Positions 28,010 to 38,050 of a stretch of DNA of 58,483 bases are shown in pieces. Below the pieces are notes generated by a model. That model did no database searches and was not told the origin of the DNA. It saw only the letters and a list, made by a program, of their open reading frames with translations. Positions within the stretch are counted from its first letter, which is position 1. Each line of letters starts with the position of its first letter. The position numbers were made by a program, and so were the translations under genes. The stretch is from Candidatus Sulfotelmatobacter sp. (GTDB taxonomy: Bacteria > Acidobacteriota > Terriglobia > Terriglobales > Acidobacteriaceae): NCBI GenBank assembly GCA_030039195.1, contig JASHQK010000509.1, positions 1-58,483 on the forward strand, read 5' to 3'.

Positions 28010-29407
28010 CTAAAAAATGACCTTTGCGTCCAGGTAAATCGTGTTGTTAGAGCTCGCATTGCGGCCCGCGCTGTCGTAATTATTCTGGGCACCGTTGAAG
28101 CGCGTATACGCCGTGTACTGCGCGGCGAGCTGCAGATTCTGCCATGGCCAATAGGAAACGTTTGCGATCAAGCCTGCGCCTCTTGGATCGCCATTGAAAT
28201 TACCGGTCACCGGAGCGGACGGATAGAGAAGGAGGTCAGAAGTGCCAGTGGTATTGAACCAACCCAGCGTCCCCGTATATTTGTTTCCCAAGTGATATTC
28301 GGCATTGGCCATCACCGTGTTCAAACGGTGTGATCCTTGCGACACTAGACCCTGAAAAAGACTACTGAGCAGATCGTTGTTCTCCCGGATGTAGGTCGCC
28401 CGAAAGGATAGAACGTCTGTTCGAAACAGGGTCCTGTCGATCTGCGTGTCCACGCCCCAATCAGTGTAGGAATCCGTCGGAATGCTTGCGCCGGTTGTGG
28501 CGGTGATTTCGTTGGGAGTCGAACGCAGGTGCATGCCATAGGTACCGACTTCATACTGAGTCTTGCCTGTCAGTTCCTGCCATGCAAAACGCCAATAGGG
28601 CGCAACACCGCGAATGTTATGGGTGAAGCCAACTCCTGGATTCGGCTGCGGTCCACCCACATGCTCCGAGCGGTAAACCGCCGCATCCAGGTAGAAATGT
28701 GTGTCCCACATGGCGTAGCCGCCAAATCCCGCGACATCCTGGGCCAAAGGACCGTTAATAATCGCCGCGGCGTTAGGCGTGGGCGCAAAATCGCTAACGA
28801 TCCAAGGGAAACCCCATGCCGGAGTACTGTTCCACAGATCCTCTACACTGGGATTGTTGTTGAGGTCGAGGCCGTAAACCAGTTCTTTGCCTCCCCAAGT
28901 CGTCTTGTTGGCAGCCCGAATATCCGTGTTGTCACTGGTGAAATGATCGTCCCTGGTGTCATAGGTCACTTGGAGGAAGCTTCCGACGTGGCTTGTCCAT
29001 GCCCCGGATAGAAACAGCGATACGTCCTGAGGAAACTCGAAGTTCCCGTTCTGTGTGTTTGTTGAGGGAGTAGTGCTAGTATTTGGCACCGGGGACTTCA
29101 CCGATGTGAACGAAGTCTCAAGCATCACGGACAGCGGCAGCGATGCGAGCAGGTCGAGTGCGGCACGCTTTTTTCCGCCGTCGGCCGTTACGACCTTGGT
29201 CTCGTCGGCTCGATCCACATAACCCAGCAGCTTGAATCTGCGCCCGGCTGGATTGAGTTCCGGAGGAGCGTAGTGACAGCCGCTACATGGCAAACCTGTC
29301 TGTCGTGCATAGCTCGGCACCGCCTCAACCTTGGGCGGACTCATCACGCCCAACACAGGAACTGCAACAACCAGAAAAATCCCAAGTGTTTTCATTTGTA
29401 TCCTCAT
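28010..29407 (-). CDS. Outer-membrane beta-barrel protein with N-terminal monohaem domain (Cyc2-like fused cytochrome-porin)
   Basis: Signal peptide, then PSYARQTGLPCSGCHYAPPELNPAGRRFKLLGY (single CXXCH at residues 41-45, followed by P-x-L). About 400 aa of alternating beta-strand-like sequence rich in G/Y/T/N. C-terminal ...YLDAKVIF ends in the aromatic OMP signature. Confidence 0.6.
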   Translation of the reverse strand: MRIQMKTLGIFLVVAVPVLGVMSPPKVEAVPSYARQTGLPCSGCHYAPPELNPAGRRFKLLGYVDRADETKVVTADGGKKRAALDLLASLPLSVMLETSFTSVKSPVPNTSTTPSTNTQNGNFEFPQDVSLFLSGAWTSHVGSFLQVTYDTRDDHFTSDNTDIRAANKTTWGGKELVYGLDLNNNPSVEDLWNSTPAWGFPWIVSDFAPTPNAAAIINGPLAQDVAGFGGYAMWDTHFYLDAAVYRSEHVGGPQPNPGVGFTHNIRGVAPYWRFAWQELTGKTQYEVGTYGMHLRSTPNEITATTGASIPTDSYTDWGVDTQIDRTLFRTDVLSFRATYIRENNDLLSSLFQGLVSQGSHRLNTVMANAEYHLGNKYTGTLGWFNTTGTSDLLLYPSAPVTGNFNGDPRGAGLIANVSYWPWQNLQLAAQYTAYTRFNGAQNNYDSAGRNASSNNTIYLDAKVIF

Positions 29408-29476
29408 TCCCCATCTCTGGTCTGCAATCAGAAATGCAGTGTTGCCTCATCTCCATGCTGAGCAGATGTTTTGCAT

Positions 29477-29492
29477 TGCGAACGCAGTTCCA
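29477..29492 (-). promoter_or_regulatory. Candidate sigma-54 (-24/-12) promoter for the cyc2-like operon
   Basis: Minus strand reads CTGGAAC-TGCGT-TCGCA, with GG and GC at the canonical 12-nt register. About 70 nt upstream of the ATG at 29407. Confidence 0.35.
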
Positions 29493-29589
29493 GTCATCTA
29501 CGCACAGCATGTAAGGGCGAAAGCGTCGTCACTTGGTCCAAGTGAACGTGATATTAGCGATCACAGGAAAAACTCTGCGACGTGTTGAA

Positions 29590-29616
29590 TCACATTTCGA
29601 CGTGATTTGAATCACA
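29590..29616. promoter_or_regulatory. Tripartite site TCACA-TTTCGA-CGTGA-TTTGAA-TCACA
   Basis: Same 5-6-5-6-5 architecture as 15200-15226 and 56913-56939 (opposite strand reads TGTGA-N6-TCACG-N6-TGTGA). Lies in the divergent cyc2-like/tetrahaem intergenic region. Confidence 0.5.
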
Positions 29617-29731
29617 CTTACGGTGAGAGGGATTAATTATCTCGCAGGCTATAACATTCGAATTTCCATATTGTTGTGCGCCGTGTAATCGTCTAAGGAA
29701 CCTTCCGGCAACAATGAGAGGGCCTAGTGAA

Positions 29732-29758
29732 TCACGGAGGGACGTGATCAAAGTCACG
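29732..29758. promoter_or_regulatory. Tripartite site TCACG-GAGGGA-CGTGA-TCAAAG-TCACG
   Basis: Fourth copy of the 27-bp architecture, 156 nt upstream of the tetrahaem cytochrome ATG. Confidence 0.5.
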
Positions 29759-29913
29759 ATTTCATTTTCCCGCGACTTAGACAGTTCTCGCTATTTTCTG
29801 TCGCAAGTTCGCAACAACGAGACATAGGAAGGCAGCCGAGAAAAATTTCCGGCTACTAGTCGTTTTCTGATAGTGACTCCATCTTGGCAGCTCAATACAC
29901 TGGCGTTTTTGTC

Positions 29914-30847: not shown

Positions 30848-30972
30848 GTGCTCTTTATGAGATTCAGCCTCGACAAAAGTGCACAGGCGAGTCAGATGGG
30901 AGCCACTCAGATTTGCGGCGGGCTCGCTGTACGAATTAAATGAGGAGCAAGCGTCTCCGCTCCGTCACACTG

Positions 30973-32331
30973 CTAGTCACAAAGACCGTACTCGCGCAGC
31001 TTCCTGTACAAATTCCGCTCGCTGATTCCAAGAATCTTAGCTGCATTTCCGCGATGCCCCTTGCTGGCTTCTAGCGCCATTCGAATGTGAGCGAGTTCCA
31101 CTTCCTGGAGTGTCAGCTGCCGGGAGGCTTCTGAAACGGCCGTTGCCGGTGTCGTCTTTGTATTACGCAGGGAAGCAGGAAGGTGATCGGGTAGAACCTG
31201 AGATCCTTCGCAAAGCACGAGAGCAGCTTCCACCACATGCAGGAGTTCGCGTACGTTGCCTGGCCAGGAGTGTTGTCGGAGCAACTGCAGGGCCGCTTCG
31301 CTAATCCTTTTGTTAGAGCCGAATCGCTCGTTGAGCATGGTCGCGAAGTGTTGGGCCAGAAGAGACACATCATCGCCTCTTGCGCGCAGAGGTGGTATCT
31401 CCACCGTGATGGTGCTGAGGCGGTAGAACAAGTCCTCACGAAAAAGGCCCTGCCGCACCAAGACCGATACATCTCGATTTGTGGCGGCCAGGATGCGGAC
31501 GTCCACTCGAATTTCCCGCGTACTACCGACGTGGCGGAACGTGGAGGTGTCGAGCACGCGCAACAACTTCGTCTGCGTCGCCGGGCTCACCTCTCCGATC
31601 TCATCAAGGAAGATTGTTCCGCCGTTAGCGACTTCGAACAGGCCGGGTTTGGCTCGATCCGCTCCGGTAAACGCACCTCGCTCATGGCCAAACAATTCGC
31701 TTTGCAGCAGGCTCTCCTGCAGCGCGGCGCATTCGACAACTACGAACGGCCTTGACCGGCGAGGACTGCGGGCGTGGATCAACTTGGCGACTCGTTCTTT
31801 GCCCACGCCTGTCTCGCCGATAATAAGCACGGTCGACTCACTTGGGGCAACGCGGTCGATCAGATTGAGCAGACGCCGGAACTCTGGGCTGTCGCCGACG
31901 AAAGAATTGCTCAGATCCGGCGGAGTCAGGCCGCGCTCGAGAATTTTTGTTCTCTGGCGCAGAGATCGCCGCTCGATCGCTCGTTGTATGCGAACCTGAA
32001 GTTCGTCCAGCGGACAAGGCTTCACCACGTAGTCGCAAGCGCCAATGCGAATCGATTCGATGGCCGTGTCGATAGAACCATGTCCGGTGAACATAATCAC
32101 CTCGGTGGAAGCCGCGGCCGCCAGAATGGCTTTTAGCGTCTCCAGCCCGCCTATACCAGGTAAGCGCAGGTCCAGCAGCACGACTTCGGGTTCCAGCACT
32201 TCCACTCGCTCGATCGCTTCCTCACCCGTGCTCGCCGTGGAGGTTTCGTAACCGAGTCGACTCAATTCATCCGCCATCACTTGCCGGAAGGCAGAATCGT
32301 CATCGACCACGAGGAGAGACGGTGGTTTCAT
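30973..32331 (-). CDS. Sigma-54-dependent response regulator (NtrC family: REC + AAA+ + Fis-type HTH)
   Basis: Receiver domain (LLVVDDD...DLRLPG), Walker A GETGVGKE, GAFTGA sigma-54 contact motif, C-terminal HTH (GNAAKILGISERNLYRKL). Confidence 0.92.
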   Translation of the reverse strand: MKPPSLLVVDDDSAFRQVMADELSRLGYETSTASTGEEAIERVEVLEPEVVLLDLRLPGIGGLETLKAILAAAASTEVIMFTGHGSIDTAIESIRIGACDYVVKPCPLDELQVRIQRAIERRSLRQRTKILERGLTPPDLSNSFVGDSPEFRRLLNLIDRVAPSESTVLIIGETGVGKERVAKLIHARSPRRSRPFVVVECAALQESLLQSELFGHERGAFTGADRAKPGLFEVANGGTIFLDEIGEVSPATQTKLLRVLDTSTFRHVGSTREIRVDVRILAATNRDVSVLVRQGLFREDLFYRLSTITVEIPPLRARGDDVSLLAQHFATMLNERFGSNKRISEAALQLLRQHSWPGNVRELLHVVEAALVLCEGSQVLPDHLPASLRNTKTTPATAVSEASRQLTLQEVELAHIRMALEASKGHRGNAAKILGISERNLYRKLREYGLCD

Positions 32332-34238
32332 CTCTCGACCTTGAGTTGAGGGCTGGTATTGATTGCCGGCATCACGACTGTGAACGTAGACCCTTTACCG
32401 AGAGCACTTTCGACTGCGATGGTGCCTCCCCAACTCCGGACTGCGTTGAGCGACAAGAACAGGCCGAGACCTGTGCCCCCTTGGCGAAGACTGAAAAAAG
32501 GTTCGAAGATCTTTTGCTGGTACTCTGGCGCGATCCCGCAGCCTTCGTCAGTGACGCGAATGTGGATTGCGTCGCCGCCTTGGGTGGCGACGATAACCTT
32601 GGCCCCGGCCTTTGACGCCTGAATCGCGTTGAGCAGGAGATTGACGAGCAGGTTCTGTAGTTCGGCCTCGTCCGCTCGGACATGTAGCGTTGTCGTGCAG
32701 AACTGCACCTCAACGGTCACAGAAGCGGTGCGAGCCGTAGGCTCGACCAGCCTCCGAGCAGCAGCGATCGCGGCATTGAGATCCACGATTTCACCACCCG
32801 ATCGCTGTCCGCGGGAAAGGCGGAGAAAATGTTGCGTAATTCCCCTGCAGCGTAGAATCTGCTCGCGCGCGATCGCCGCCTGTTCAAGAATTCGAGCCTG
32901 ATCCTTGGGACAGTCCTGGCCGCCTTGAGTCTCACGAAGGATGCCTTCTACGCACATTAGGGTCGTTGCCAGGGGCGTGTTCATCTCATGGGAAAAGCCA
33001 GAAGCAAGTACCCCTACCGATGCTAAGCGGTAGGACTCCGCGAGTTTTGCCTCGGCCGCACGTCGGTCGGAGATGTCTCGCCAGACTTCCACGACTTGGG
33101 TTAGACGACCAGAGGCGTCCAAAATGGGCGAAGCATGAATTTCCTCCCATGCCACAGTGTTGTTCCCCGCTTTGCGTTCGCAGATCCGAACCTGACGCGC
33201 ACCGGCTTTCAGACATGCGAGCGTGGGACAATCGGACAAGTTGCACGGGCCTGGCTCCAGTTTGTAGCAGCTGCAGCCCAGAACTTGCTCACGAGAACTG
33301 TTGGCGCGCAGCAAGAATGCGTCATTGGCTGCAATGATCTTTCGTTCCCCGTCGAGTACTACAATCCCGTCATCAATACTGTTGATCACAGTTTCCAGCC
33401 GCTCCCGCTGAGTGCGGACTTCTCCCACCAGGTGGGACACAGAATCCGCCATTTCATTGAACTCTTTCGCGAGCCAGGACAGCGTATCAGAGCCTTCCGT
33501 GGGTACGCGGCGTTCGAGATCGCCTTGAGAGATCAGGCGCGCCGTGTTCTCAAAACGCTGGAGGCGACGCAATACCGCCACGCGGATCACCAATGCGATT
33601 GCTCCGACAATAACGAAGGTCAGCGCTCCAGTTCCGGCCACCATCCAGCGCAGGTCGCGGGTCATCGCCTCCCTGATCTCTCCGGCGTTGTAATCCAGAA
33701 TGAGGACGCCATTGATCTTCTGCTGTGGACTGTGGCAGCGCTGGCATTCCTGGCGGTTACGAATTGGCACTACAGTTCGAAGAATGGTTCCACCTTTCGT
33801 CTCGATTACCCGGCTCGAGCCACGGCGTTCTGGCGGATCACGATGGCAGGCTTGGCATGTGGGAGAGTCGATCCTGAACTCATTCTGGGTGACTCCCGGC
33901 TTACTCGAATAACGCTCTGTGCCATTGCGATCAATCACGACGAGCTGCTCCACACGAGATTGCTTGCCGAAGCTCTCGATCATCTGCGCGATCAGAGTGC
34001 GGTCATTGCTCATCATCTGATGTTCGAGCGCGGTGCGGATCAATTCGCTTTCGGCAAGCGCGCTAGTGCGGGCCGTGTCGAGGAGGCTGTGAAAATGACG
34101 GGTGGAAAAAACGTAGGCGGCAACTGTACAGGCTACTACCACCGCCACCGTGACACCGAGCGCGAGGCCAACGGTCATGCTGGCAAAACGCAGCTTCATG
34201 ATGACGGCACCAGGTCGGCGGGATGATGGCACATGCAC
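32328..34238 (-). CDS. Sensor histidine kinase with periplasmic domain carrying two CXXCH motifs, HAMP, Cys-rich PAS, HisKA/HATPase
   Basis: Two TMs flank a ~140-aa loop containing CQACH and CQRCH. PAS has GCSCYKLEPGPCNLSDCPTLAC. H-box FSHEMNTP. ATGA overlap with the response regulator gene. Confidence 0.9.
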   Translation of the reverse strand: MHVPSSRRPGAVIMKLRFASMTVGLALGVTVAVVVACTVAAYVFSTRHFHSLLDTARTSALAESELIRTALEHQMMSNDRTLIAQMIESFGKQSRVEQLVVIDRNGTERYSSKPGVTQNEFRIDSPTCQACHRDPPERRGSSRVIETKGGTILRTVVPIRNRQECQRCHSPQQKINGVLILDYNAGEIREAMTRDLRWMVAGTGALTFVIVGAIALVIRVAVLRRLQRFENTARLISQGDLERRVPTEGSDTLSWLAKEFNEMADSVSHLVGEVRTQRERLETVINSIDDGIVVLDGERKIIAANDAFLLRANSSREQVLGCSCYKLEPGPCNLSDCPTLACLKAGARQVRICERKAGNNTVAWEEIHASPILDASGRLTQVVEVWRDISDRRAAEAKLAESYRLASVGVLASGFSHEMNTPLATTLMCVEGILRETQGGQDCPKDQARILEQAAIAREQILRCRGITQHFLRLSRGQRSGGEIVDLNAAIAAARRLVEPTARTASVTVEVQFCTTTLHVRADEAELQNLLVNLLLNAIQASKAGAKVIVATQGGDAIHIRVTDEGCGIAPEYQQKIFEPFFSLRQGGTGLGLFLSLNAVRSWGGTIAVESALGKGSTFTVVMPAINTSPQLKVER

Positions 34239-34254
34239 GGCCTGACGTCAACGA

Positions 34255-34290
34255 CTGACAAACAGTCAGGGCCACCTGACATTGTGTCAG
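34255..34290. promoter_or_regulatory. Tandem palindromes CTGACAAACAGTCAG / CTGACATTGTGTCAG (candidate enhancer/UAS for the sigma-54 activator)
   Basis: Two 15-bp CTGACA-N3-TGTCAG-type inverted repeats, 21 bp centre to centre. They sit ~75-95 bp upstream of the -24 element. TGACGTCA lies just upstream at 34243-34250. Confidence 0.5.
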
Positions 34291-34354: not shown

Positions 34355-34370
34355 TGGAACAGCAATTGCA
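34355..34370 (+). promoter_or_regulatory. Sigma-54 promoter TGGAAC-AGCAA-TTGCA
   Basis: GG/GC in the exact -24/-12 register; 12 of 14 consensus positions (YTGGCACGR-N3-TTGCW). 30 nt upstream of the ATG at 34400, which has an AAGGAGGG Shine-Dalgarno. Confidence 0.65.
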
Positions 34371-34399: not shown

Positions 34400-34726
34400 A
34401 TGGAAATGCTATTGATGGGTTTGTGCGTGGCCGTATTTGGAGTGGGAGTCGCAGCTGCTGCCTTTGGAGCCGCTACGCGCTCGGAATCGCCCAATTCCGC
34501 TGAACAACCCAGGCTTCCGTTAGTCAAGGCAACTGTGCCGACGCGCTTTTTCTCGGATCGTGTTCCAACCCCGCCATCCATCCCGTCCCGACAAGTGCCC
34601 ATTGAAGTCCTGCTCCTGCAAATTGAGAACCACGTCCGTATGGAACAGGCGGCCGCAGAGTCCTTTCTGGCACTTCCCACACACGAGCAGCTTCACAGCA
34701 AAACCAATTCGCCGTTTGTCAACTGA
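34400..34726 (+). CDS. Small membrane-anchored hypothetical protein, first gene of the second Rieske/cyt b operon
   Basis: N-terminal TM (LLMGLCVAVFGVGVAAAAFGAA), strong SD, no recognised family. Confidence 0.5.
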   Translation: MEMLLMGLCVAVFGVGVAAAAFGAATRSESPNSAEQPRLPLVKATVPTRFFSDRVPTPPSIPSRQVPIEVLLLQIENHVRMEQAAAESFLALPTHEQLHSKTNSPFVN

Positions 34727-34737
34727 CGGAGAGACTC

Positions 34738-35202
34738 ATGACACATGAACTTCTAAATGGTCTCTCTTCCGCCGAGGGCGAGCAGGTTTTGAAGCTCGGC
34801 CACAGAGTGATCGTCCCCAGCGAAGCAACGCTATTCCAGCTGGGAGATCAGGCCGATCGGCTCTTCCTGGTTGAACGCGGACGAATCAAGCTGACATTGC
34901 CAATGCAGGTGCGTAAGCGAGAACAGGATGTTTTTGTGGAGGAGAGAGGTCCCGGCCAGACCGTCGGCTGGTCAGCCTTGATTCCGCCTTATCGATTTAC
35001 CCTCACCGCGACCGCCGTTTTGCTCGACGCAGAAGTGATCGCCTTCCCACGGGAGGCGCTGCTCAGGTACTTTGCAGCCAATCCAGGAGCGGGACACAAG
35101 ATTGCTTTCAATCTTGCGGTCGTGATTGGACATCGCCTGCAACTGTTCCAGACGATGTGGCTGCGCGAGATGCAGCGCACGGTGGAAGTACGTTCCGCGT
35201 GA
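34738..35202 (+). CDS. Stand-alone cyclic-nucleotide-binding (cNMP/CAP effector) domain protein, no HTH
   Basis: LFQLGDQADRLFLVERGRIKL...GPGQTVGWSALI...; 154 aa, too short to include a DNA-binding domain. Confidence 0.8.
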   Translation: MTHELLNGLSSAEGEQVLKLGHRVIVPSEATLFQLGDQADRLFLVERGRIKLTLPMQVRKREQDVFVEERGPGQTVGWSALIPPYRFTLTATAVLLDAEVIAFPREALLRYFAANPGAGHKIAFNLAVVIGHRLQLFQTMWLREMQRTVEVRSA

Positions 35203-35218
35203 CGAAGAGACCTGACCT

Positions 35219-35719
35219 ATGCAAACGGTAAGCGAGACAACCCCCTCCGGCAGCAAACAACAAGGTGAACGCCTCGACCATTTCAACAGTACACGCCGCC
35301 GCGTCATTGAGTATTTTCTCGGTGGTGGCTTGTTGGCTTCGTTCGTTTCATTTCTCTACCCGGTGTTGCGCTACCTCATACCTCCTGCGGTAGCTGATCT
35401 TGGCGGTGACGAAATCGTCGCCGCCAAGATCGGCGAGCTAAAGCCGAATTCCGGCAAGATATTCCGATTCGGCAACCATCCTGGCTTGTTGATCCTAAAC
35501 AGCGATGGTACCTATCGTGCACTTTCCGCTACTTGTACCCACCTTGGCTGCACCGTGCAGTATCGCGCCGATCTTCGCCAGATCTGGTGTGCCTGCCACA
35601 ACGGAATCTACGATCTGAACGGTCGCAATGTTTCCGGTCCTCCGCCCAGACCGCTGGATGTGTTCGATGTCCACGCGCGCGGAGATGAGATTGTCGTCAG
35701 CAGAAAGCGGGAGGCGTGA
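35219..35719 (+). CDS. Rieske 2Fe-2S subunit (b6f/PetC-like)
   Basis: N-terminal TM; [10 protein letters not shown]...CACHNGIYD. Confidence 0.9.
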
Positions 35720-36801
35720 ATATGTTCGCTACCCTCCGTCACTGGCTCGACGAGCGGTTTGATTGGGATGACCTGACCGCTCCGCTTCGCCATAAGACAG
35801 TCCCCTCTCATCGCCTGTCATATTGGTATTTCCTCGGGGGCATTACGCTTTTCCTTTTCGGGATTCAGGTGGCGACCGGCATCTTGTTGCTGCTCTACTA
35901 CCGGCCCGGGGCAAACGAAGCGTTTGAGAGCGTGCAGTACATCATGACCCGGGTGCAATTTGGCTGGCTGATCCGGTCCATCCATTCCTGGTCCGCGAAC
36001 CTAATGATCTTTACTGCCTTTGCGCATATGTTCAGCGTGTTGTTCCTGAAGGCCTACCGCAAACCGCGTGAGCTTACGTGGGTCAGCGGTGTACTCCTCC
36101 TGTTTCTTGTCATGGGATTCGGCTTCAGCGGCTATTTATTGCCGTGGAACACTTTGGCTTTTTTCGCCACAAAGGTCGGCACGGAAATCACCGGACAGGT
36201 TCCGATCATCGGCAAGCCCATAATGATCTTTCTTCGCGGCGGCGAAGAGGTGACAGGTGCAACACTGACAAGGTTCTTCGGATTCCATGTCGCGGTTCTT
36301 CCCGGCTTAGCGACTGTCTTGCTTATGCTGCACTTGTTACTGGTGCAGCGCCTGGGCATCAGTGTTCCCCCGAAACTTGAAGCGCAATGGAACGCGAATC
36401 CATCTGCGAAGAGCCAGATGCAATTCTTCCCCAACTTCTTGTTGCGGGAGATGATGGCTTGGTACGTTGCTCTGGCAATGCTGGGAGTGCTGGCAGCGGT
36501 ATTCCCATGGAACCTTGGCGTGAAAGCCGATCCGTTCGTACCTGCGCCAGCGGGAATCAAACCCGAATGGTACTTTCTCTTTATGTTTCAGACATTGAAG
36601 CTCATTCCTTCTAGGGTTTGGTTCGTGGATGGAGAAGTCTTGGGGGTTCTGGGCTTCGGTCTCGTGGGGCTCGCGTGGCTTGTGTTGCCCTTTTTCGAAA
36701 GTTTCTCCTCCTCACACACGAAACGCCGGATTACTCAATTTACAGTCTTTGCTTTCGCGTACGTCGCAGGCATGAGCGTTTATGGCTATCTTGCAAAATA
36801 G
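35716..36801 (+). CDS. Full-length (fused) cytochrome b
   Basis: 361 aa; [41 protein letters not shown]; ATGA-type overlap with the Rieske gene. Confidence 0.9.
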
Positions 36802-38050
36802 ATTGGGCGCGCTTGGCGCGCTCTGCGGTGTGGTTTTGGCCGGGCTTGTTTTATTTGTTGCATGTCTGGCCCACGCGCAAACCTCGAACTCCTGTCTGGA
36901 TTGTCATGCTGGTCTACCAGACCCTCTGGGAGTCAGCCAGGAAAAGTTTAGCCAGGACGTACACGCCCAGAAAGGGCTGACTTGTGTTAGCTGTCACGGC
37001 GGCGACCCAACCAGCGACGATCCGGACAAGGCCATGAACAAGAAAGCGGGGTGGAAGGGCAAGATCGAGCGCAAGCAGATCCCCGAGTTATGCGGAAGTT
37101 GTCATTCCGATCCCTATTACATCCGGCAGTTCAATCCAGGCTTACGAACTGACCAGCTCGACCAGTACCGTACCAGCGTGCATGGTAAACGTTTGGTTGC
37201 GGGAGACACAAAGGTAGCCGTGTGCATCGATTGCCATAGTGTGCATGACATAAGGGCTCCCAGCGATCCCCGCTCGACGGTGAATCCGGTCAATGTGGCG
37301 ACCACCTGCGCAGGCTGCCATGCTAACGACGGTTATATGAAGGGATACTCCATTCCTACCGATCAATTCGCAAAATATGACGTGAGTGTACATCATGAGG
37401 CATTAGCTGTGCGGGGCGATTTGAGTGCACCAACCTGCTCGACGTGCCACGGGAATCATGGTGCAGTGCCTCCAGGAGTAGACAAAGTCCAGAATGTCTG
37501 CTCAAACTGTCACGCGTTCCAGGACCAAATGTACGAAAAGAGTTCTCACAAGAAAGCCTTTCAAGCTTCCTCCCTGCCAGGGTGTGTCGTGTGTCACAGC
37601 AACCATGCGATCACCTACCCCAGCGATGCAAAACTCGGAACCGGTCCAGAAGCGGTCTGCATGCGTTGTCACACTCCCGGCGACAAATGCGATCAAGCCC
37701 GAGCCCGATTGCAGGCGAAACTAATCAGCCTCGACTTGGCGATCAAGAAAGCGGACCAAGCGCTCGCCCTTGCGGAGTCTTCCGGCATGGAGGTAGGCGA
37801 AGCGCGCATGGCACAGGCTCAGGCCCGAGATTCGCTGACCAAGGCTCGAGTCACAATCCACAGTTTCCAGGAAAGCCTAGCGGATCAGGACATTCAGGCG
37901 GGGCTGAAAATTGCCGCAGAGGATCTGCAAGCCGGCCAGGCAGCCATGGTTGAGCGCAACCGTCGCCGTGCCGGCTTGGGGGTATCCCTCGTCGCAATAG
38001 GAATGGTACTGGCTGGGCTTCGGCTGTACATCAAGAAGATAGAGCGCTAG
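36782..38050 (+). CDS. Nonahaem cytochrome c with C-terminal coiled coil and TM anchor
   Basis: Signal peptide. Nine CXXCH (CLDCH, CVSCH, CGSCH, CIDCH, CAGCH, CSTCH, CSNCH, CVVCH, CMRCH). C-terminal [17 protein letters not shown]. Confidence 0.85.

Follow-up and report, generated by a model that had tools for sequence, protein, structure and literature searches.

Two conserved CXXCH motifs in a predicted periplasmic haem sensor kinase and its candidate sigma-54 link to a Rieske/cytochrome b operon in Acidobacteriota

What does a histidine kinase with two CXXCH motifs between its transmembrane (TM) helices sense, and which genes does it control? This question is raised by a locus on contig JASHQK010000509.1 of Candidatus Sulfotelmatobacter sp. 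(assembly GCA_030039195.1), which we analysed over its whole 58,483 nucleotides and refer to as the window. Few bacterial means of reading redox state or gases outside the cytoplasm are known; periplasmic c-haem sensors are one of them, and to our knowledge only their single-haem members have been studied. We consider it likely that the kinase encoded here is a haem sensor with two c-haems that drives a divergent Rieske/cytochrome b operon through a sigma-54-dependent regulator. The locus offers a defined system, with a conserved candidate output, in which to ask what a second haem contributes, as well as a handle on respiratory-chain regulation in uncultured peat Acidobacteria (relatives of Sulfotelmatobacter and Acidiferrum).

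The minus-strand frame 32328-34238 translates without a stop into a protein of 636 residues. Because orthologs are mostly 623-624 aa long, the kinase probably starts at the ATG at 34199 (residue 14), giving 623 aa; residue numbers throughout follow the 636-residue frame, which is counted from an in-frame GTG at 34238 upstream of this ATG. A hydropathy scan found two hydrophobic segments only, one on each side of the loop that carries both motifs (Table 1). Since the N-terminus is positively charged (Lys, Arg) and a HAMP domain directly follows the second segment, the loop is predicted to be periplasmic. An earlier reading of the window, made by a model from the letters without database searches (the sequence-only reading), had placed the motifs in a periplasmic loop between two TM helices; the scan, the charge of the N-terminus and the position of the HAMP domain all agree with it, and the topology prediction puts the loop outside rather than in the cytoplasm.

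Translation confirmed both motifs of that reading, CQACH (CXXCH-1) and CQRCH (CXXCH-2), 37 residues apart and at the nucleotide positions listed in Table 1. They are present in 120 of the 120 listed close orthologs, whose sensor regions are 79-97% identical, and His48, His73, Met75 and Met86 are likewise kept in these sequences. When 1.84 billion representatives were searched exhaustively with HMMER, 1020 proteins reached E <= 0.001, of which 362 reached E <= 1e-10. Among the best 150 of these matches, 106 representatives of 50%-identity clusters align across the region, and every one carries both CXXCH motifs at 23-57% identity; the motif-less rows among the 150 are short or frame-broken fragments. 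Met75 is found in 96 of the 98 representatives that have a residue at that position, and Arg154, Asn161, Gly177 and Asp182 are near-invariant in this diverged set too. Desulfatiglandales contribute one distant cluster, with both motifs at aligned positions.

Within the phylum, 83 of 301 evenly sampled Acidobacteriota genomes (approximately 28%) encode a homolog at E <= 1e-5. We aligned 40 of these homologs (E 1e-89 to 1e-7) with the query, giving 41 sequences, and found two motifs at aligned positions in 39 of the 40. Of the 41 sequences, 40 retain both Cys and the His of CXXCH-1, and all 41 retain Met75. In the closer Acidobacteriota homologs the second motif is CXXCH; the more distant ones have CX3CH or CX4CH there, such as CSNAACH. 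Conservation of both motifs, on which the proposal of a haem sensor turned, thus holds in close and diverged orthologs alike.

Could the pair have arisen by chance? By our rough estimate from the composition of the protein (2.5% Cys, about 2% His), one CXXCH per 150 residues would be expected by chance in about 2 cases in 1000, and two in about 2 in a million. Because both motifs are conserved across close, diverged and phylum homologs, the pair is, to judge from these alignments, not a chance occurrence. The view that the motifs are accidental or non-functional and that the loop is not periplasmic is contradicted by this conservation, by the family membership described below and by the topology; we found nothing in its favour and regard it as extremely improbable. 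Cytochrome c maturation proteins of the ResB, CcsA and CcmF types are encoded in the genome, and periplasmic attachment of haem c is therefore possible.

The loop falls into a family of known haem sensors. Residues 67-181 match PF21563 (Mcp40H-20_sensor) with a score of 30 bits (curated cut-off 27) and cover positions 3-107 of the 112 in the profile, a match that a search of the genome recovered as well; below threshold, the loop also resembles Tll0287-like (E 0.0036) and multihaem cytochrome families. Its best sequence matches in the PDB are 3B47 and 3B42, the sensor domains of the Geobacter chemoreceptors GSU0582 and GSU0935. In these alignments CQRCH falls on the haem-binding CQSCH of both structures, and Met75 falls on Met60 of GSU0935, the distal ligand, counted back from His144. 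The PF21563 match and the alignment of CXXCH-2 bear out the likeness to Geobacter c-haem sensors that the sequence-only reading had drawn.

An AlphaFold2 (AF2) model built from 98 homologs reached a predicted local distance difference test score (pLDDT) of 91.4 and has the sCache layout. Its long N-terminal helix runs as far as Met75 and is followed by a second helix and two strands; CXXCH-1 comes next, on a short helix, then a strand hairpin, another short helix with CXXCH-2 (150-154 in the model), the last strand and the TM2 helix. Foldseek matched this model to 3B42 and 3B47 and to the sensor domains of WalK, CitA, KinD and DctB; the root-mean-square deviation to 3B42 and 3B47 is high, as expected because those crystals are domain-swapped. 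Since the PDB alignment and the AF2 and Foldseek layout agree, CXXCH-2 is the canonical site of the family, on the inserted helix described for sCache_heme domains (PMC12889525).

CXXCH-1 is the unusual element: when the loop is aligned to the Geobacter domains, the segment that holds this motif, between strands 2 and 3, falls in a gap. In Cache domains this segment normally covers the ligand pocket. Going by the fold topology of the model, haem 1 may sit in the position of that pocket. It could also be that CXXCH-2 alone binds haem, with CXXCH-1 forming a disulfide or a metal site or remaining unmatured, as the single haem of the solved family members and the gap at CXXCH-1 in their alignment would suggest. 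We think this quite unlikely: the Cys, Cys and His of CXXCH-1 are invariant in the 106 representatives and nearly so in the phylum alignment, an invariant His is predicted by a haem site and unneeded for a disulfide, and the motif lies in a short helix, as is typical of haem c motifs. On sequence evidence, the periplasmic domain almost certainly carries two covalent c-type haems.

To describe what the kinase might control, we compared 80 related loci, with kinase orthologs at least 66% identical, from metagenome-assembled genomes of Terriglobales, Sulfotelmatobacter, Acidiferrum/Acidoferrales, Angelobacter, Bryobacteraceae and Solibacteraceae. The NtrC-family regulator gene follows the kinase gene in 77 of the 80, and in the window the kinase stop and the regulator start overlap in an ATGA, the coupling to a sigma-54 activator that had been read from the sequence alone. 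On the other side of the kinase, across an intergenic region of 200 bp, lies a divergent operon with Rieske, cytochrome b and nonahaem cytochrome c genes, each of which recurs in most of the loci (Table 1); where operon genes are absent, this is mostly at contig ends.

The intergenic region contains a -24/-12 element of the sigma-54 type, followed by a strong Shine-Dalgarno sequence before the ATG at 34400, and two 15-bp palindromes that are candidate enhancer sites. Among 74 orthologous intergenic regions, 70 have TGG-N9-TGC at -24/-12 spacing, 41-60 nt ahead of the ATG; 69 carry one palindrome or more, and 47 carry two. The aligned orthologous regions keep both palindromes together with a TGGCA-N7-GTGC element, and the genome has an rpoN gene. 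On the simplest reading, the palindromes are the binding sites through which the regulator drives the divergent operon. The kinase operon itself has a sigma-70-like promoter on the minus strand (TTGACG-17-CATCAT with a TG extension, 34223-34251), which overlaps a conserved CGTCA element adjoining the palindromes, an arrangement that may allow the regulator to act on its own operon as well.

The sequence-only reading had suggested that the kinase may tune the cytochrome and bc-complex operons that flank it. One half of this proposal stood, namely the divergent Rieske/cytochrome b/nonahaem operon, which is syntenic and preceded by the promoter and palindromes. The other half did not. The genes on that side (a tetrahaem cytochrome, a Cyc2-like porin-cytochrome, a cupredoxin and an NAD(P)-linked Rieske operon) are not conserved in their position beside the kinase. 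We rejected control of the Cyc2-like/NAD(P)-linked Rieske operon, which is syntenic in only 2 of the 80 loci and has GTGA/TCAC-type repeats upstream instead of CTGAC palindromes.

We propose the following route for the signal. Haem 2, bound through C165/C168 with His169 as proximal ligand, would by homology have Met75 of the N-terminal helix as its sixth ligand. Met75 would be bound to the reduced haem and come off upon oxidation or binding of a diatomic ligand, as in GSU0582 and GSU0935, where Met is bound on the reduced haem and released upon oxidation or binding of nitric oxide (NO) or carbon monoxide (CO) (PMC8396549). Haem 1 (C128/C131, His132), added on the short helix between strands 2 and 3, would serve as a second sensing site or as an electron entry point. 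A change in redox state or ligation at the haems would shift the N-terminal helix and the TM helices, and the signal would pass through HAMP to the PAS domain and set the activity of the kinase. The phosphorylated NtrC-type regulator would then bind the two CTGAC-N5-GTCAG palindromes and turn on the sigma-54 promoter of the operon for the Rieske/cytochrome b and nonahaem proteins.

Several points count against this proposal. In sequence, the loop matches the solved Geobacter domains weakly (E 0.005 and 0.12). We saw no universally conserved second His or Met that could be the sixth ligand of haem 1, either in the 41-sequence alignment or among the diverged representatives, and both the haem-haem geometry and the pocket placement of haem 1 are read purely from the order of secondary-structure elements in the model. 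Most orthologs have GTGC, not TTGC, as their -12 element, and binding of the regulator to the palindromes is inferred solely from their position and conservation. Our literature search turned up no experimental work on this kinase or any other two-motif protein of the family. Finally, what is sensed could be NO instead of redox potential (PMC12889525).

This last point amounts to an alternative with the same architecture and target operon, in which the signal would be NO or another diatomic or small ligand at a haem, perhaps haem 1. A recent preprint reports that an sCache_heme domain fused to TM helices and HAMP binds NO tightly and forms no stable oxy complex, that stand-alone sCache_heme domains behave as redox proteins, and argues that members fused to signalling domains sense NO (PMC12889525); GSU0582 and GSU0935 also bind NO and CO (PMC8396549). 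The lack of a conserved distal ligand at haem 1 would suit such a role as well. The proteins tested in the preprint are, however, single-motif members, the invariant Met75 suits the redox-linked on/off switch of Met in the Geobacter sensors, and what the conserved target operon encodes is a quinol-oxidising Rieske/cytochrome b/multihaem complex rather than a function in NO detoxification or denitrification. We therefore regard NO sensing as possible but the less likely case: because the target operon is respiratory, sensing of redox or electron flow fits somewhat better.

The cytoplasmic PAS domain provides a further candidate sensor. Residues 279-394 match PAS_4, PAS_9 and PAS, and the model of this region (pLDDT 87.5) has the standard fold, is closest to LOV and DosP domains, and dips in pLDDT at a cluster of cysteines in the Eα/Fα cofactor region; C324 aligns with the position of the photoactive Cys of LOV domains. 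An Atlas search with the PAS domain returned generic PAS clusters only. The five-cysteine PAS domain of the sequence-only reading is present as a string, C322, C324, C332, C337 and C342, of which the last four are invariant in close orthologs and C322 is conserved in 90% (C353, outside the string, in 74%). Across the family the claim shrinks to three cysteines: in 44 PAS-bearing homologs, a set selected for showing the Cys motif, C324 and C337 are invariant and C332 is kept in at least 90%, while C342 belongs to the majority consensus CPxxxCF and C322 varies.

By analogy with known domains, the PAS domain probably holds a Cys-ligated metal or Fe-S cofactor of its own. In OrpR of Desulfovibrio vulgaris, three PAS cysteines (C52, C61 and C65) ligate a redox-sensitive [4Fe-4S] cluster and span 13 residues, as C324-C337 do (PMC8359166). 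One could go further and take the Cys-rich PAS domain for the main sensor, of cytoplasmic redox or O2, with the haems structural or secondary; the near-invariance of C324, C332 and C337, their place in the cofactor region and the dip in pLDDT are in keeping with this. Against it, many two-motif members do without a PAS domain, being proteins of about 500-570 aa or having other linker domains (about one quarter of full-length representatives have another linker domain in place of PAS), and the haem motifs and Met75 are conserved more strictly than the PAS cysteines. The likeness to OrpR is one of spacing as given in that paper, and the 44 homologs were preselected for the motif. We consider it unlikely that the PAS domain is the main sensor.

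A more far-reaching possibility, which we put forward tentatively and with some doubt, is that two-haem sCache domains form a functionally distinct class of sensor in which haem 1 occupies the Cache pocket and is open to ligands or electrons. Haem 1 could then take up a small ligand or exchange electrons with periplasmic cytochromes, for example with the co-regulated nonahaem protein, while haem 2, on the opposite side facing the helix, would retain its redox switch with Met75. Such a kinase would integrate two signals or respond across a range set by two potentials, with the Cys-rich PAS domain contributing a third redox input from the cytoplasm. If this is true, there would be direct feedback between periplasmic electron flow and synthesis of the Rieske/cytochrome b complex.

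How does the predicted two-haem kinase compare with systems already described? The closest are GSU0582 and GSU0935 (3B47, 3B42), which share with it PF21563, the fold, the CXXCH helix before the last strand, the position of the Met ligand, and the placement of the domain between two TM helices with HAMP after it. They differ in that they have one haem and a chemoreceptor output, whereas the kinase signals through PAS and histidine kinase domains to a sigma-54 activator and bears, 37 residues upstream of the canonical site, an additional invariant CXXCH in a stretch absent from them. The wider sCache_heme family (DUF3365/Tll0287) has the same Cache fold and inserted CXXCH helix, and its fused members are extracytoplasmic with TM helices and HAMP; there a single CXXCH is the defining motif, and the proteins tested, for which NO binding was reported, come from Pseudomonas (PMC12889525). 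A text search of this 2026 family survey found two-haem members unmentioned.

Haem PAS-like sensors with an additional haem motif have been listed in 2006 and 2013, namely GSU0591 and GSU0599 of Geobacter and Adeh_2011 and Adeh_3383 of Anaeromyxobacter, GSU0599 being a two-component protein (PMC8396549, PMC3831638). We liken them to the kinase by description only, and we found no characterisation of any of the four in the literature. OrpR resembles the kinase in the spacing of three PAS cysteines over 13 residues and in belonging to a redox-responsive sigma-54 system; it is itself the soluble activator, whereas here the PAS domain sits in the kinase. The cytoplasmic part of the kinase and the regulator have their best NCBIfam similarities to NtrB/NtrC-type pairs (AtoS/AtoC, ZraS/ZraR), below the equivalog cut-offs. 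These pairs share the arrangement of tandem palindromic enhancer sites (candidate sites here) upstream of a -24/-12 promoter, and differ in sensor domain and target operon. No paper that brings together histidine kinase, CXXCH and sigma-54 came up in our literature search.

The domain family, its haem, its fusion to kinases and listed two-motif members are thus already known. What is new, as far as alignments and synteny go, is that the two-motif form is usual in Acidobacteriota, that Met75 is universally kept, that the two-motif sensor is combined with a Cys-triad PAS domain, and that a conserved sigma-54 link connects the pair to the Rieske/cytochrome b/nonahaem operon.

Table 1. Positions in the window of the kinase and its domains, the regulator, the intergenic elements and the divergent operon.
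Feature	Position	Strand	Basis
Sensor histidine kinase gene	32328..34199	-	Translation, Pfam, ortholog lengths
TM1, about residues 20-44	34107..34181	-	Hydropathy scan; one unbroken AF2 helix
Periplasmic sCache_heme domain (predicted), about residues 45-197	33648..34106	-	PF21563, AF2 pLDDT 91, Foldseek
Met75 codon; predicted distal axial ligand of canonical haem	34014..34016	-	Aligned to GSU0935 Met60; conservation
CXXCH-1 (CQACH), residues 128-132; extra haem site (predicted), short helix between strands 2 and 3	33843..33857	-	Translation, alignments, AF2
CXXCH-2 (CQRCH), residues 165-169; canonical sCache_heme site (predicted), preceding last strand	33732..33746	-	Alignment to 3B47/3B42, conservation
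TM2, about residues 198-220	33579..33647	-	Hydropathy scan, AF2
HAMP domain	33438..33578	-	PF00672
Cytoplasmic PAS domain	33057..33404	-	PAS_4, PAS_9 and PAS matches; AF2 pLDDT 87.5; LOV-/DosP-like fold
Cys cluster C322, C324, C332, C337, C342; Eα/Fα cofactor region of PAS	33213..33275	-	Translation, alignments, AF2
HisKA + HATPase_c catalytic core	32364..33008	-	Pfam
NtrC-family response regulator; receiver, sigma-54 AAA+ with GAFTGA, Fis-type helix-turn-helix (HTH)	30973..32331	-	Pfam (including Sigma54_activat, HTH_8), translation
Terminator-like hairpin directly 3' of regulator gene	30944..30963	-	Sequence
Two 15-bp palindromes CTGAC-N5-GTCAG, candidate enhancer sites	34255..34269 and 34276..34290	+	Sole exact matches in the 58-kb window
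Sigma-54 type -24/-12 promoter TGGAAC-N5-TTGCA, 45 nt before ATG 34400	34355..34370	+	Sequence, ortholog alignment
Divergent operon, candidate target	34400..38050	+	Synteny, promoter
108-aa membrane protein	34400-34726	+	75/80 loci
Protein with cyclic-nucleotide (cNMP)-binding domain only, 154 aa	34738-35202	+	75/80 loci
Rieske protein	35219-35719	+	69/80 loci
Cytochrome b	35716-36801	+	68/80 loci
Nonahaem cytochrome c, 422 aa, nine CXXCH	36782-38050	+	67/80 loci

Two small proteins of the divergent operon deserve description. The 108-aa protein, encoded by the first gene past the sigma-54 promoter, has one N-terminal TM helix and no Pfam match and is 54-83% identical between loci. The 154-aa protein consists of a cyclic-nucleotide-binding domain alone, without an HTH, inside a Rieske/cytochrome b operon. 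The arrangement varies at two loci at least: at L049 the Rieske, cytochrome b and multihaem genes are found downstream, on the other side of the kinase, and are not divergent, and at L068 about 0.8 kb of extra DNA lies between the small open reading frame and the cNMP gene and the match to the kinase is interrupted.

The same genome encodes two more two-motif kinases, on contigs C651 (L124 1438-3252, minus strand) and C174 (L123 1843-3519, minus strand). Both have a CXXCH plus a CX4CH in the sensor domain and are followed by a sigma-54 response regulator, and the C651 copy comes directly after genes for a 4Fe-4S dicluster protein and an NrfD-type membrane subunit. Because these paralogs also precede sigma-54 regulators, the combination of a predicted two-haem sensor kinase with a sigma-54 activator is a reused module, found at least twice beside respiratory genes. 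The strict ortholog is patchily distributed: only two other sampled genomes have one with a sensor at least 59% identical, one complete genome of the same genus (G158) has no match, and another (G179) has a distant paralog only. The block of kinase, regulator and operon may be an accessory module.

Elsewhere in the window, the minus-strand gene at 28010-29407 encodes a 465-aa protein with a signal peptide, a single N-terminal CSGCH and no Pfam match. The region upstream of this gene (29440-29760) contains a -24/-12-like element, TGGAAC-N5-TCGCA, at 29477-29492, and several CRP-like palindromes of the form TGTGA-N6-TCAC, unlike the CTGAC type of the kinase locus.

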